A stretch of DNA of 64,000 bases from Fibrobacteria bacterium (GTDB taxonomy: Bacteria > Fibrobacterota > Fibrobacteria > UBA11236): NCBI GenBank assembly GCA_041746255.1, contig JBGTHM010000083.1:1-64000 (forward strand). The letters run 5' to 3'. Positions 27,001 to 36,000 of the stretch are shown in pieces (the first letter of the stretch is position 1; every line of letters starts with the position of its first letter). The position numbers were made by a program.

Positions 27001-30000
27001 GTTGGTGAAAAAAGTCTGGTGGTTTATCGATCAACAGCGGCTGCGAATTGGAAGGATATGCAACCTGTATACAGTCAAGCCATAAATAATGCTTATCCGG
27101 CAAAGGCCGATATGAGTCGTTGGGCGAATGAGAAAGTGCTGAGCCTTACCTATCAGGAAATGCCCATCCAGAATGAAACGTACACTAAAATCCGGGTTAT
27201 TGATCTGAAGCTTGTCGGTGGAGGTAGTACGTCGCTTAAGGACGCTATCAAGGGTAGTAGTAAACGCTCAATCTCATATTCAAGAAATGGAAAATTCCAA
27301 CCCGGTTCCTTTAAGGTGACGCTACCCCAAGGTGAGAACGTGCTGTCATTTCAAATTATTCGCCTGGATGGAACGGTTGCCTTTCGCTCTGCTCCTACGA
27401 TACATGCAGCGTCGAACGTGCTTCTATTTGAAAATGATGGTAGGCTGGATAATGGCATTTATTTTGTTACCTTCTCACATGTAAATCAACAACAAACTTT
27501 TAGGGTTTGGGTTTCACCGTAACGCAAGAAAAATCATATCCACCGCCACGCGCCATCTGCACTTCCGCCTCCCGCGAGCGCCTTAGCATAGCCCTGAAAA
27601 TGGCATGCAAACACCTTTTCTGATAAACTCCTTATGGAAATTGTGGTGCGCACCCCGCGCCCATTTTTTCGATCGCAACCTATCGAAGGTTGAAAAGGTT
27701 CAGTGCGACTATCTGCAAAGGTTATTGAGAAAAAATCAGAATAGCCGGTACGGACGAGTACATGGCTTCGCGAATATTCGCAGCTATTCCGAATACCAAT
27801 CCCGGGTTCCGGTGGTGGATTATGCGGACGTGGAAGATTTTATCTGGGAAGCGGCCCAGGGGGGTAGTGCGCTCACCCGGGAAAAAATTTTACTACTCGA
27901 ACCCACCAGTGGGACGCAATCGGGCAGTAAATTCATTCCCTATACCGCGACTTTACGCAGCGAATTTCAAAAGGGCATAGCACCCTGGGTTTACCATCTC
28001 TTCCGTCGTTTCCCTGAATTAAAATCCGGCACGAGCTATTGGTCGCTGTCGCCTTCCCTTACCCAGGTGCCACCCCGCGAAAGCCGCGTTCCCATCGGAT
28101 TCGACAGCGATTCCCGATACCTGGGGCCACTGGGGGTATGGATGGATAGGCAGCTTTTTTCGGTTCCGTCCCGAATCGCTAAAATCGAGGATCCCGATCG
28201 ATTCTTTTACCTTACGGCCCTGCATTTACTGCGTGATGAATCCCTCAGCCTGGTTTCGGTTTGGAATCCCGGTTTTTGGACGATCCTCCTGGAAAAGATA
28301 GCGGGTTGGAAAGAGAATTTGCTGCGTGACATTCAGGAGGGCCAATCGTCTTCGGGTAGTCGGCGTGCCCGGCATCTCGAATCCGAATGGGGGAAAAGCA
28401 CTGAGGATAACCCGCCCTGGTCCCGGATCTGGCCGCGTTTGCGGGTGATCAGCTGTTGGAGGGATGGCTGGGCCAAAGTACCGTCGGAGCGCCTGCAACA
28501 GTTGTTTCCCGGCGTGTTTATCCAGCCTAAAGGACTTATCGCCACGGAGGCCTTTGTTTCCTTTCCACACGAAGGTTCGCCTCAATCCGGAGCGAATCTT
28601 CTGGCATACCCCTGTCACTTTTTCGAGTTTATAGACGTCCAAACCGGTAAGATTTATCCTGCTTGGAAATTAGTGGCGGGCGAAACCTATTCCGTAGTGG
28701 TTACGACCGGGGGAGGGTTGTACCGGTACCGGCTACGTGATTTGGTTTCCATTACGGGATTTAAGGATTCATGCCCGATTTTGAGATTTATCGCCAAGGA
28801 AGATGCCTTCAGTGATTTGACGGGAGAAAAACTAGCGACGGAATTCGTGCAAAAATGTGGTGAAAGGGTATTGGCGGAATGCGTTACAGATTCTCTTTTC
28901 TTCTTACTGGCCCCGGAGCCTTCGGAAACGCCGCCTTTTTATGTTTTCTATTTTTATCCGGGTGAAAAATGGGATATAGGTAATCTTAAGGAGATTGCCG
29001 TAAAGATGGACGAGGCTTTGGCGGAAAATTTCCACTATCGCCTTTGTAGACGGCTGGGACAATTAGGTGCGGTTCGGGCGGTATCGCTGTATTCGGATGC
29101 TGAAACCCGGTATTACCGACATAAAAGCCGGAATTCCAAATGGGGAGACGTCAAATGGAAAGTTCTGGAGCAGCCCGATCGATGGACGGAAATACTCGGC
29201 CCATCCGGGTAGCGTTAATCTCACCCAAGGGCCCGCTTTACAAGCATAAGACCGGTATTTTCCGAAAATCCCTGCGCGTCGCGCCCCTGACTTTAACCAC
29301 GCTCGCGGCCTTGATTCCTAGCGATGTCGAGGCCGAAGTAAGCCTTTTCGACGAAGGCGTCATGGACGTGCCCCCGGATCTTGACGTGGATTTGGTGGGA
29401 ATGACGGTTATCACCGGATCCGCCCCCCGCTCTTATGAATTATCGAAACAATTTCGCGAACGAGGAATCAAAGTCGTATTGGGCGGCCCGCATGTCACCT
29501 TGGTTCCCGACGAGGCCGCCTTGCATGCCGACTCGGTGGTGCTGGGTTATGCCGAGGAAACCTGGCCGCAATTATTACGTGACTTCGTTCGCGGCCAAAT
29601 GCAGCCCGTGTATAAAATGAGCTTGGATTTTTCCTTGCAAAGCGAAGCGAACCTCCCTTTCGCCAGGCGCGAGCTGCTACCGAAATCCATGTATAAAACC
29701 CGCAACACCTTCGAAGCTTCGCGCGGTTGTATTCATTCCTGTGAATTCTGCGTGGTGCCGACGGCCTGGGGACGCAGGCCGTTCCAAAAACCGGTGGCCC
29801 ATGTGGTGGAGGATATCCGGAGAACAGGTGCGCGTCAATTGGTTTTCTACGATTTGAACCTTATCGCGGATGCCGCGTATGCCAAAGAGCTGTTCGCCGC
29901 GTTGGTTCCTTTGAAAATCCAGTGGTTCGGACTTTCCACCACCTTTCTGAACCGGGATAGGGAGCTGTTGGAACTTACCGTCAAAAGCGGTTGTCGGGGC

Positions 30001-33000: not shown

Positions 33001-36000
33001 TCGCTGCATCCAAAGTCCTGGACAAGTTGGCTTATGCTTTTCGTGTTGCAAGATTTCTGTTATTACTGGCTGCATCGCAGTCACCATCGCGTGGGTTTTT
33101 TCTGGGCCGCGCATGGGGTGCACCATCAAAGCCGGGAAATGAATTTCAGCGTTGGGATGCGCACCGCGGCCGCCCAGGTGCTTACTTCCTGGCCGTTCTA
33201 TCTGGTCATACCCTGGCTTGGCTTTCCCCTGTGGATGTTTCTTATCGTGCTCACCGCGCAAAACATTTTCCAGCTTTTCGCGCATACCCGGCTTATTCCC
33301 CGGATGGGAATTTTGGATAGCCTTTTCAATACGGCTTCCAATCACCGTATGCACCATGAAGGTAGGGATCCTAGAATCGGATTCAATTTCGGAGGGTTTT
33401 TGATGATATGGGACAGGCTGTTCGGGACCTATCGCCCCGAAATCCAGGAGGTGGCTTTCGGCATTGCCGGCCACATTCCCGCGCGTAATCTCGTGTTCGC
33501 GATTGTAATGCCGTGGAGAGACTGGTGGCGGAAACCTTGAGCAGTCGACGCGTTGAATTATCCGGCGAAGCGCTTCCCGTCTGGAAATTGCGGCCTGAAG
33601 AAGTTAGGCGTATGTTTCATTTGATGGAATGCCATTATGAGGCTGTTTCCGAAGCAAGCTTTATTCGCGACCTCAATAACAAAGATTATGTTTGTCTCTT
33701 GCGCAGAGAAGACAGGCTCATCATGGGTTTTTCGACCTTGGCGGTTAATCCCTACGGTGTGCGGGAGTCCGGAGTCAACATCCTTTTTTCCGGGGATACC
33801 ATCGTGTCTCCGGAGTGTTGGGGAAGCTCGGCATTGGTGCGTCTCTTCTGCCGGACGGTGGGCGGATTGATGGCCACGGATACCGATAAAGCCTGGTATT
33901 GGTATTTGATTTCCAAGGGGCATCGTACCTACCAATATTTACCGCTCTTTTGCCGAACCTATTATCCCGCGATGGAACCCATGCGACAGGCGCCGTTGGT
34001 GGATCTCGCGGCGCGAATATCCTTCAGCCTGTTCGGCAATGCCTGGAAACGTGAAGAGGGAGTGCTGCGCTTTCCCCACAGTCAGGGGCAATTGAATGCC
34101 AAGCTGGCGGGGGATACTTGGCGAAAGGCGCATAATCCGCAGGTGGATTTTTTCCTTAAGAAAAATCCGGGATTTCATCAGGGCGAAGAATTGGTGTGTC
34201 TAGCTTCGCTGGCTCCGGAGAATGTTCTGCGTGAAGCAGCGCAATGGATTCGCGAAGGAATGCGAACTCCGTTACCGTTGGAAAAGCACGGTCAAATCCA
34301 TGCGGCGTGAAAGATTTCCGCTTGAATGCCGTCCATAATCTTTGAAAAGGGGAAAGCGGAAGACAGTCCGGGTCTTTGCGCCTTGCTGAGGCAGTCTCCC
34401 ATGGATGGGGAGGTACGGCTATGCTTGGAAAGGGAACCGGATTATTTTCCGGGCTCGGAAGTTCAGTCACCGGACCCCTATGTCATCGTGGCGCGCGAAT
34501 GCGGAACGGGAAAACCCGTAGGCGTATGTTGTTTTGGAATCCGGGAAGTCTTTGTTAACGGAGTGGCTGCCGCCATTCCGTATATCAGCGATTTGCGCGT
34601 TCACCCCGATTATCGCGGCGGAAGCGTGCTGGCACGGGGGTATCGTTATTTGCGGAAACTGTTGCCGCCGGAAAGTTTCGCCCAATCCATCATCATCCGG
34701 GGAAATGCGAAAGCCGAAACCCTGTTGACTTCGGCCCGTGCCGGACTACCCCATTATCATCCCTATGGGGAATGCGTATCGACATCGGTTTCCCTGCAAG
34801 CCGGAAAGCCTCGCCTCGGCCGGAGAAGCGATGCCCTGCGTATAAGAAGGGGAGAGGCAGGAGATATCCCGTCTATGCAGAAGTTCCTGGACAGGGAAGG
34901 GCCTTCCAAGCAGTTCTTTCCCAACTACCGGTTCGAACGGGAATTCGGTACCGCGTATTTTCGGGGATTGACTCCGAGTGATTTCTACCTGGCTTTCGAT
35001 GGTGCCAATTTGGTGGGATTCCTTTCGGTATGGGACCAAAACGGGTTTAAGCAAACGCGCATTGTGGGGTATTCGAAAATTTTGGGTAGGATGCGACCGC
35101 TGATAAACGGGTGGTCGAGATTGCGCGGGGGATTCGAACTGCCACCTTGCGGCAGCTATTTGAAATATCTGAGCTTACACGCCGTGCTGGTTGAAAGAAA
35201 CGATCCGATCATATTTCGGGAATTGGTACGCAGTGTTTACCAAGACCATGCGGGGCGTGAGTTTGGCTATTTCGTCTGCGGAATGGATTCACGCGATCCC
35301 TTACGCGCCGTGCTGCACGAATTTCCCCATCACGACATTTGGGGGCGTCATTTTTTGGTGACGTATGGGGAGGGCGATCCGAGGGAATCGCTAAGATCAG
35401 GACTGTTCTCGATTGAAGCGGGAAGAATCTAAGCCTGGGTTATGCACGCGCGAAGCCCAGGCTAGGGATAAGGCGGCGACTAATTCGCGGAACGCATATA
35501 CCCGAACTTATTTGTGAAGGTGACGCGGGCACGTGAAATTTTGGAGGGAGTGGCAGAATCATTTTTCGCCATTTCCTCCGTCGTAATAGTTGCGTTAAGG
35601 ATATAAACACCGTTTCCCCACGGTTGTCCGCTGGATGTCACTGGGATGATGCTCATCACTACCGCCACCGAATCGGCGGTTTTGGGCATGGCTTCCCAAT
35701 CGGCCGGCTTGACGGCTCCGCGCGATTCCAGCACGAACTGGCCGAGATGGTCGTAGACAAAGAGTTGAAAACTAAAGGGAGCCGAGACTTTGAATATGAA
35801 GCTGGGTGTCTTGTTGGGATCGGACAACGAGATAATATTGCGATTGCAATTATAGAGGCAGCCCCGGCTGTCCACATTTACCACACCCGGCCCGGTCTGG
35901 GTAAGTACGGCTCCGCCCCGAATGACAATGGGATCGGAAATCGGTTCGGTAATAGGTGTTGTTTGAGTGACTGGTATTACCCTTTCAACTTCGATGAATC

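Follow-up and report, generated by a model that had tools for sequence, protein, structure and literature searches.

Genes of the Locus

The window, a stretch of 64,000 nucleotides from a member of the Fibrobacteria, carries at 27605-35432 on the plus strand seven open reading frames, all intact and coupled (Table 1), and their coordinates bear out the seven-gene operon recognized in an earlier survey of the genome, with overlaps at five of the six junctions (-31, -4, -4, -4, -16 and +15 in gene order). GC3 is uniform along the operon (0.55–0.64); there is no sign of misassembly, and a public contig, possibly from the same source DNA, covers 25000-38000 without difference. Promoter and terminator scans gave results at chance level.

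Table 1. Genes of the operon, with coordinates in the window
Gene	Product	Position	Strand	Length (aa)	Role
g02325	GH3-family adenylating amido synthetase	27605..29212	+	535	core
rSAM-A	B12-binding radical SAM paralogue A	29182..30528	+	448	exchangeable tailoring module
rSAM-B	B12-binding radical SAM paralogue B with DUF4070	30525..31955	+	476	exchangeable tailoring module
g02328	no known family	31952..32797	+	281	lineage-specific accessory
hydroxylase	membrane di-iron fatty-acid hydroxylase / sterol-desaturase superfamily protein	32794..33540	+	248	accessory
GNAT1 (g02330)	single GNAT fold	33525..34310	+	261	core
GNAT2 (g02331)	tandem GNAT	34326..35432	+	368	core

A Three-Gene Core and Its Three Forms

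The GH3 gene and the two GNAT genes constitute a conserved core that recurs far above chance and across phyla in three forms, one with radical SAM proteins, one with a Rieske protein and a bare one with an efflux pump. All 35 loci anchored on rSAM-B with at least 3.5 kb downstream contain GNAT2, and 34 of the 35 contain all three core genes; among GNAT1-anchored genomes GH3 was found in 76/80 and GNAT2 in 66/80, and evenly sampled loci harbor GH3 in 32/36, GNAT2 in 30/36 (some of the six absences are not explained by a contig end) and the radical SAM pair in 26/36. The survey had placed the B12 radical SAM(s) in the core beside GH3 and both GNATs; the triad stands, but the radical SAMs, although its most frequent partner, are not invariant, given the even sample and the existence of bare triads. 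Conversely, their appearance as a rare variant among the 80 loci closest by GNAT1 (a radical SAM group in 3, a Rieske protein in 74) is a sampling artefact. The view that GH3 and two GNAT-fold proteins form a conserved, undescribed biosynthetic unit, in the simplest case for a fatty-acyl amide, is sustained; a literature search returned no description of this gene set, the OlsH paper (PMC12493201) being the only relevant match among those listed.

The triad is patchily spread, in about 0–5% of the sampled genomes per phylum and in at least nine named phyla. In Bacteroidota, 350 genomes searched gave no true match and one spurious one, and a targeted scan gave 32 loci. Cultured carriers are known for the Rieske and bare forms. 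A published passage on locus tags that may be those of the Acinetobacter cluster names efflux genes only.

Neighbors of the triad include fatty-acid desaturases, hydroxylases, PAP2, Mpo1-like, sulfotransferase and MMPL proteins. The survey's statement that little else recurs holds for the even sample, where PAP2, desaturase, SnoaL and AurF-like genes occur in 2–6 of 36 loci, but not for 28 long loci anchored on the radical SAMs, many of them close kin (PAP2 in 21, desaturase in 19, SnoaL in 19, AurF-like in 12). Rieske-form loci often carry an UnbV/ASPIC-RnfD fusion, which we equate, as an assumption, with enediyne E4/E5; a literature search for UnbU/UnbV gave no match. The bare triad is interleaved with HlyD, MFS or RND and outer-membrane channel genes in L184, L190 and L191, and seven to eight acidobacterial loci have P450 and MATE neighbors, a setting that suggests a secreted molecule rather than a membrane lipid. 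A presumed link between GNAT2 and F390-synthetase-like clusters was seen in no mapped locus.

The Core Enzymes

Enzymes of the GH3 family activate a carboxylic acid by adenylation and then couple it to an amine. That g02325 belongs to this amido synthetase family, as the survey had it, is confirmed by Pfam (GH3 122 bits and GH3_M 61 bits, cut-off 23.6), with the N-terminal and central domains present and the C-terminal GH3 domain at 22.7 bits, slightly below the cut-off, and by three nucleotide motifs at residues 101–109, 309–316 and 371–379, compared with the definitions in PMC12493201; motif II is divergent and retains its Thr-Glu. The protein also matches plant GH3 structures (E 1e-14). OlsH, a GH3 enzyme, joins a fatty acid to ornithine (PMC12493201), and the OlsH/OlsI(/OlsG) system of Singulisphaera acidiphila resembles the present one in its bacterial GH3 with three nucleotide motifs in having an acyltransferase in the operon and probably in ATP-dependent amide formation. 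The partners differ: OlsH is accompanied by an alpha/beta-hydrolase and an N-methyltransferase, g02325 by B12 radical SAMs and two proteins of GNAT fold, and "GNAT," "radical SAM" and "Rieske" are not mentioned in that paper. The OlsH equivalog model gave g02325 43.1 bits against a cut-off of 620, reproducing the survey's 43, and none of the seven operon proteins matched the OlsI alpha/beta-hydrolase or OlsG in Pfam or NCBIfam, which rules out an OlsH/OlsI pathway.

GNAT1 has no Pfam match; its predicted structure (pLDDT 92.9) and Foldseek GNAT matches at E 1e-5 confirm the fold assigned to it previously. By fold it lies closest to protein N-acetyltransferases (NatD, Z 12.4), on a par with LasI (Z 11.8), and FeeM follows at Z 10.9. 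Like the acyl-ACP-dependent N-acyltransferases LuxI and FeeM, GNAT1 is a single GNAT fold devoid of the canonical Q/R-x-x-G-x-G/A CoA pyrophosphate loop (PMC4964394), present after strand 4 in 0/73 rows; unlike them, with which identity is 8–12% in a tie shared with many unrelated GNATs, it has its own invariant Cys and GDT motifs. Cys225 is near-invariant (Cys in 72/73 rows). In most loci GNAT1 is adjacent or fused to GH3, fusions being present in P0164, P0174, P0176 and L068.

The survey had described GNAT2 as a tandem GNAT of N-myristoyltransferase (NMT) type. The tandem GNAT fold is well founded (pLDDT 93.1; Foldseek NMT/tandem GNAT E 3.5e-13; VIA alignment to NMT with Z 19.9–20.4, rmsd 3.9–4.3 and 295–310 aligned residues), but the fold does not single out NMT, since five tandem GNATs tie at Z 20.4–21.5 (VIA); it is the fixed C-terminus that supports the NMT type. 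In 123/124 homologs the C-terminus of GNAT2 reads [E/D]xxx[L/I/F]-stop, the end position is fixed in 124/124, and a further set shows a hydrophobic last residue with E/D at -5 in 24/25. The last residue, 368, aligns to Leu455 of yeast NMT, and in NMT the C-terminal residue is catalytic (PMC4964394, PMC7048800), so this alignment would favor amine acylation by GNAT2. The tandem fold is shared with NMT and also with Eis, MAB_4324 and MshD; GNAT2 differs from NMT in its identity of only about 13–14% and in being bacterial and encoded within a small-molecule operon. Pfam found no NMT sequence domain in it, only Acetyltransf_1 (25 bits, residues 45–100), and the canonical loop is present after strand 4 of the first domain in 0/85 GNAT2 rows.

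The B12 Radical SAM Pair and Its Exchange with a Rieske Protein

The presence of two B12 radical SAM enzymes, claimed in the survey, is borne out by Pfam matches above cut-off to Radical_SAM and B12-binding (49 and 44 bits in rSAM-A, 60 and 40 bits in rSAM-B, the latter with DUF4070 at 29 bits). DUF4070 is presumably also a domain of HpnP. Both proteins have the N-terminal B12-binding domain and a CX3CX2C motif that is conserved in the orthologs, which number, this copy included, 62 for rSAM-A (at least 56% identity) and 77 for rSAM-B (at least 54%); the two share 38% identity, and up to four paralogs occur within one cluster. The host genome encodes a 1282-aa MetH-type B12-binding protein and hence uses cobalamin. 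The N-terminal B12-binding domain, CX3CX2C and a DUF4070-like tail are common to HpnJ, HpnP/HpnR, Gmm, GrsA/GrsB and BchE; unlike these cobalamin radical SAMs of lipids and pigments, rSAM-A and rSAM-B reach no equivalog cut-off and belong to a subfamily that accompanies the GH3-GNAT triad. A 2026 review of lipid-modifying radical SAMs does not mention "GH3," "amide" or "acyltransferase."

Among 143 GH3 loci, 62 have the radical SAMs, 71 Rieske-A, 10 neither and none both, and at least four switches are forced on the GH3 tree. Once kinship is counted the exclusion is not significant, with three independent pairs on well-supported branches (six on all; sign test p 0.25), and two different products would yield the same alternation. 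In 12 Bacteroidota loci a different B12 radical SAM lies alongside the Rieske protein. Simple anaerobic replacement is not the full story, because radical SAM loci also carry O2-dependent enzymes: desaturases, AurF-like proteins, a second Rieske clade (19/91 loci) and the hydroxylase found here. Precedents are BchE versus AcsF for radical SAM/oxygenase exchange, and ring closure by GrsA/B, which is also one for a paralog pair (PMC13598231, PMC13459092).

Accessory Genes

The survey's fatty-acid hydroxylase is upheld by Pfam (FA_hydroxylase, 102 bits) and has three His boxes at 94, 107 and 184. It shares the di-iron superfamily and the three His boxes with the ornithine-lipid hydroxylase OlsE, from which it differs in its score on the OlsE equivalog (62.9 against 475 bits) and in being an accessory that is not conserved across the cluster family. 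For g02328 there was no match in Pfam, PDB or the Atlas; a hydrophobic stretch followed by a Cys, judged by eye, makes it a probable lipoprotein. A tandem SCP2-like fold, also guessed by eye, was discarded in view of the missing Pfam/PDB match and of the absence of an internal repeat in hhalign. Both genes are indeed outside the core, as previously stated: hydroxylase relatives (26–34% identity) occur in six related loci, and g02328 homologs in 3/9 triad loci of the same phylum, in 0/80, 0/80 and 0/27 other loci, and in one more database match.

Proposed Pathway and Alternatives

Our preferred reading, to which we give slightly less than an even chance, is that the three core enzymes build a fatty-acyl amide, either an amino-lipid or an amide resembling a lipid, which is then modified. 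GH3 with its partner GNAT1 would form the first amide; GNAT2 would transfer a long acyl chain to a second amine, with its C-terminal carboxylate serving as the base in the manner of NMT, and the acyl donor is probably acyl-ACP or a long acyl-CoA rather than plain acetyl-CoA. The radical SAM pair might then act, more tentatively, on an unactivated carbon of the amide product, in the slot that the Rieske oxygenase may occupy in the other form. The hydroxylase would introduce a hydroxyl group or a double bond, and g02328 may carry or bind the product beyond the inner membrane.

The survey had assigned C-methylation to the radical SAMs. A possible if doubtful alternative is accordingly that the triad makes an amino lipid which they C-methylate once or twice, the Rieske form giving a differently decorated product. 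B12 radical SAMs are for the most part presumed to be methylases (PMC13598231), rSAM-B has the DUF4070 domain, and up to four paralogs per cluster would fit several methyl sites. Against this, the claim received no direct support: no methylase model reached its cut-off (best 103 of 578 and 98 of 600 bits), HpnR, PhpK, KedN5 and TsrM-type class B methylase families were all far under theirs (among the best 25 of 28 and of 27 NCBIfam families), the relative of solved structure closest in sequence, at only E 5e-11, is AprD4, which does not methylate, and each of the 133 typed loci has either the pair or an oxygenase. C-methylation is only one option, because the decorating enzymes exchange with a Rieske oxygenase or are absent, and an oxidative step is as likely; since the pair fills the Rieske slot, O2-independent oxidation, desaturation or ring closure would be at least as likely as methylation. 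We would weigh oxidation-type chemistry and methylation about equally, each roughly twice as heavily as anything else.

The order of events might also be reversed, which seems rather unlikely. OlsB and OlsA make an acylated amino acid, and in parallel the GNATs would build one here, whose carboxylate GH3 would activate to add a second amine, giving a dipeptide- or taurine-type head group. ATP-dependent taurine transfer to an ornithine lipid, with the gene unassigned, fits such a route (PMC12971839), as do the fold tie of GNAT1 with LasI and its proximity to FeeM, the mere 43 bits of this GH3 clade on OlsH and the sulfotransferases that recur nearby; some loci keep GNAT1 and GH3 without GNAT2, which speaks against it. 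We give the same low odds to a small acyl amide that is secreted (a signal, surfactant or antibiotic) instead of a membrane lipid. The exporter genes at the three bare-triad loci, P450 and MATE in acidobacteria, AurF-like, SnoaL and UnbV/ASPIC neighbors and the patchy spread point that way, but most radical SAM loci, the present operon included, lack an exporter, and PAP2, desaturases and hydroxylases are membrane-lipid enzymes.

The present copy is a rearranged mosaic and an atypical member of the family. In a quick GH3 tree g02325 is sister to L096, a relative of the same family, and identity to L096 is 74% (rSAM-A), 78% (rSAM-B) and 49%, against 37 and 32% for the GNATs. Both GNATs fall in the Rieske-type lineage (GNAT1, AU p 5e-4; GNAT2, O-clade 100/100, AU p 9e-6), so that both genes were probably replaced by copies from that lineage. 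We consider it very unlikely that the operon is a recent patchwork which no longer makes the family product. The mixed descent, a gene order matched by no other locus seen and a genome without the desaturase, PAP2, SnoaL and AurF-like accessories would fit; all seven frames are nevertheless intact and coupled across the graft, the motifs are retained, GC3 is uniform, and relatives at 59% identity exist for GNAT2 and g02328.

Least credible is a protein or peptide substrate, acylated by NMT- or NatD-like GNATs and modified by the radical SAMs, for although protein N-terminal acyltransferases are among the top fold matches of both GNATs, the folds tie with small-molecule GNATs and the neighbors are lipid enzymes.

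Significance

Taken together, though improbable as a whole, the triad could be a new carrier-free diacyl-amide route across many phyla, in which the invariant Cys of GNAT1 would relay the GH3-activated acyl group and GNAT2 would be a bacterial small-molecule acyltransferase with the C-terminal-carboxylate chemistry thought unique to NMT. The radical SAM pair would then do without O2 what a Rieske oxygenase and its enediyne-type UnbV/ASPIC partner do in the other form, closing a ring, cross-linking or desaturating the lipid chain; among amide lipids such a reaction would be new. The gene set points to a bacterial amide-lipid class yet to be identified, for which the bare triad requires three genes only. 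Non-methylating B12 radical SAMs are rare and poorly understood, and the exchange with a Rieske protein makes the function of a large B12 radical SAM subfamily directly testable, while GNAT2 may reveal the origin of NMT-type catalysis.

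Operon Layout and Family Assignments

The operon comprises seven ORFs whose successive junctions measure -31, -4, -4, -4, -16 and +15 bases, so that the survey's count of five overlaps in six junctions holds. An unrelated gene for a BNR-repeat protein lies upstream across an 82-base gap, and the downstream gene is convergent. Pfam recognizes a GH3 protein, two B12-binding radical SAM proteins (rSAM-A and rSAM-B), a fatty-acid hydroxylase and, weakly, a GNAT domain in g02331 (GNAT2), with zero matches for g02328 and g02330 (GNAT1). None of the NCBIfam models shown for the operon proteins reaches its cut-off; the OlsH model stays far below (43 of 620 bits), as previously stated. 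Between 25000 and 38000 the window shows zero differences from one public contig, which may itself be the source of the window DNA. Every operon gene is single-copy in the genome, distant paralogues aside, such as a second, unrelated GH3 (25%) whose locus appears to be another orphan GH3 pathway.

Features of the operon, its surroundings and related loci
Feature	Location	Description
Operon	27605-35432, + strand	Seven ORFs
Inverted repeat	35432-35463	8-10 bp, directly past the last stop, between convergent genes (by eye); unlisted by the terminator scan
Flanks	18319-27522, 35480-37663, 43963-45753	Secreted-looking proteins with short C-terminal extensions, unrelated to the operon; BNR_4 repeat protein, vWA protein, sugar-isomerase-like and dehydrogenase-like ORFs (by eye)
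Second GH3 locus	L001:8633-13211 (G000:C129, about 38632-43210)	Unrelated to the operon; overlapping junctions
SAM-dependent methyltransferase	second GH3 locus	TIGR00027, over cut-off
860-aa fusion	second GH3 locus	OlsE-like hydroxylase (199 bits) + GH3 (63 bits on OlsH)
Enolase-superfamily protein	second GH3 locus
ASPIC fusion	L003:4459-7233	~920 aa, RnfD/NQR2-like membrane domain + FG-GAP + UnbV_ASPIC; also in 48 other loci, Rieske-type clusters
Different radical SAM	L072:8263-9930	~550 aa, between Rieske gene and GNAT1; also in 11 other Bacteroidota loci
Bare triad	L184:7150-14829	Acinetobacter baumannii record; triad genes interspersed among those of a tripartite efflux pump, in the order HlyD, MFS, GNAT1, GH3, outer-membrane channel, GNAT2
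Distant GNAT1 relative	L185:9680-10828	Without GH3

Core Genes of the Family

The survey's finding placed B12 radical SAM proteins in the core beside GH3 and both GNATs. With GNAT1 as anchor, 165 GTDB loci were obtained; in the best 80 (nine named phyla), GH3 occurs in 76, GNAT2 in 66, a Rieske protein in 74 and the ASPIC fusion in 49, the radical-SAM group of the window in 3 and another B12 radical SAM in 12. With rSAM-B as anchor, the best 80 of 438 metagenome loci show the near-fixed order rSAM-A, rSAM-B, GNAT2, GNAT1, GH3, with the full triad (GH3, GNAT1 and GNAT2) in 34 of the 35 loci having at least 3.5 kb downstream and the ASPIC fusion in 0/80. Even genome draws, centre genomes excluded, gave matches in 10/200 genomes of the operon's own phylum (including the unpublished G194, absent from the widened loci), in 6/400, 7/350 and 14/300 for the phyla of loci L070, L066 and L048 respectively, and 0 true matches in 350 genomes for that of L072. 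Among 36 widened loci from these draws (including one weak outlier and two cut off by the end of a contig), GH3 is present in 32, GNAT2 in 30, the radical-SAM group in 26, a core Rieske protein in 2 and the ASPIC fusion in 1. Since it accounts for 26 of 36 evenly sampled loci, the radical-SAM form is the commonest yet not the sole form; GH3 and both GNATs are retained as core, the radical SAMs not being invariant.

Many evenly sampled loci have one or two extra radical SAMs that lack a B12 domain (L200, L201, L202, L204, L205, L206, L211 and L194); one such protein carries an HMPTM zinc ribbon, and in L206 the B12 pair is absent. In the spirochaete loci L062 and L069 the cluster adjoins signalling genes (7TM-DISM cyclase, AraC, SpoIIE/HAMP), and a PAP2-desaturase fusion occurs.

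Alternative Tailoring Modules

Rieske proteins form two clades, A in the core of loci lacking the rSAM pair and B an accessory in both forms. Cultured, non-pathogenic bacteria with a Rieske-type locus include Segetibacter aerophilus (L022), Marivirga aurantiaca (L072) and Chitinimonas viridis (L070). A near-complete GH3 is present in 143 loci, counting the window's own. The radical-SAM group occurs in 62 of them and Rieske-A in 71, of which 47 also have the ASPIC fusion; no locus combines the two groups, and 10 lack both. The radical-SAM label switches 7 times on the GH3 tree, 4 of them forced by strong branches; because only 3 independent pairs lie on strong branches (sign test p 0.25), the mutual exclusion of the two groups is suggestive and unproven. 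GNAT2 goes with the tailoring module: in trees of 30 hand-picked rows (three long branches dropped; 33 rows in earlier runs), window aside, 13 rSAM-type and 16 Rieske-type rows are split by one change (91/84) for GNAT2, against 3 changes for GNAT1 and 4 for GH3.

The FG-GAP/UnbV_ASPIC and RnfD-like domains of the ASPIC fusion are presumably enediyne E4/E5 (UnbV/UnbU); no polyketide synthase was noticed beside it, and in L209 a desaturase shares its ORF. The best NCBIfam model for the ~550-aa radical SAM of L012 is PhpK (180 of 600 bits).

A B12 radical SAM in place of an oxygenase has a precedent in BchE versus AcsF, as described in PMC13598231, and a paralogue pair like rSAM-A/rSAM-B has one in GrsA/GrsB, to which PMC13459092 attributes ring closure in lipid chains. 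That the rSAM pair is a plain anaerobic replacement of the Rieske oxygenase is a reading opposed by the O2-dependent enzymes frequent in rSAM-type loci and by the di-iron hydroxylase of the window operon itself. C-methylation had also been proposed; B12 radical SAMs are present, and their identity as methylases has no direct support, methylase and non-methylase being indistinguishable by sequence here (NCBIfam models below cut-off; AprD4 E 5e-11) and PMC13331322 giving no usable motif. Both proteins fall outside every characterised radical-SAM family tested.

The Two GNAT Proteins

At E 0.001, a search of representatives clustered at 50% identity gives 2,093 relatives of GNAT1. Its predicted model (pLDDT 92.9) matches single GNATs (Foldseek E 1e-5), with many ties in VIA (Z of 12.4 for NatD, 11.8 for LasI and 10.9 for FeeM). 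The canonical CoA loop Q/R-x-x-G-x-G/A, as given in PMC4964394, occurs in 0/73 aligned members, and Cys225 is kept in 72/73. GNAT1 is fused to GH3 in P0164, P0174, P0176 (proteins) and L068 (a locus). Distant relatives without GH3 occur in L185, L192 and L199; the neighbour is an AMP-binding enzyme in L192 and, in Azospirillum, a NAD-dependent reductase domain. These arrangements hint at activating partners of GNAT1 other than GH3.

The predicted model of GNAT2 (pLDDT 93.1) is a tandem GNAT for which Foldseek ranks N-myristoyltransferase (NMT; E 3.5e-13) first; since five tandem GNATs tie in VIA (Z 20.4-21.5), the fold alone does not single out NMT, and GNAT2 lies outside NMT proper. The canonical CoA loop is found in 0/85 rows (first domain). 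Among 126 ORFs with a real stop, two truncated ones were set aside; the last residue is L, I or F in 124/124, with E or D four residues ahead in 123/124, and 24/25 further, more distant GNAT2s keep the pattern, ending in L, I, M or V. In VIA the aligned range stops where residue 368 of GNAT2 pairs with residue 455 of yeast NMT. The carboxylate of NMT's last residue is described as the catalytic base (PMC4964394; PMC7048800) and, in the review PMC4964394, as unique to NMT among GNATs. The fixed C-terminus is a stronger NMT-like sign than the fold, and its alignment with the catalytic residue favours GNAT2 as a putative amine acyltransferase. The survey's tandem GNAT is upheld; its NMT type, which the fold does not single out, gains some support from the chain end.

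Mosaic Origin of the Window Copy

The rSAM-A, rSAM-B, GH3 and g02328 proteins find their best match among all loci in the same-family relative L096 of genome G166 (74, 78, 49 and 39% identity), GH3 being its sister with support of 99-100. GNAT1 and GNAT2 share 37% and 32% with L096, against 46-48% and 39-41% with distant Rieske-type matches. Grouping with L096 is rejected for GNAT1 (AU p 0.025 quick, 5e-4 mixture model) and GNAT2 (1e-4 and 9e-6), p values that are not fully prior because FastTree runs preceded the choice of this grouping. The simplest account, judged from these sequences, is that both GNAT genes were replaced by copies from a Rieske-type cluster. The gene order is matched by no other mapped locus, and g02328 homologues occur in clusters at 3/9 same-phylum loci and at none of the other sampled ones. 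The 100% complete genome encodes a MetH-type B12 protein and gives no match at E 1e-6 to our profiles for Rieske, desaturase, AurF-like, PAP2 or SnoaL accessories.

Proposed Pathway and Product

GH3 enzymes adenylate an acid and then join it to an amine. Because the operon GH3 keeps all three nucleotide-binding motifs and given this family chemistry, it is predicted to adenylate an acid and form an amide; OlsH is reported to join a fatty acid and ornithine (PMC12493201). Family-wide, the neighbouring genes encode lipid enzymes. Tentatively, with chances a little short of even, GH3/GNAT1 and GNAT2 would together build a diacyl or acyl-extended amide, which the rSAM pair and the hydroxylase would then modify. 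Alternatively, GH3 may act at the end and attach the final amine, paralleling the ATP-dependent transfer of taurine to ornithine lipid, whose gene PMC12971839 gives as unknown. The product may also be secreted and not a membrane lipid; the third form of the family places the bare triad amid HlyD, MFS or RND and outer-membrane-channel genes (L184 and the similar L190 and L191). The operon would work like a GH3-dependent amide-lipid pathway, although it falls outside OlsH/OlsI and its hydroxylase outside OlsE. No description of this gene set was found in the full-text literature searched (mostly outside subscription papers), and the operon family is real, widespread and undescribed.
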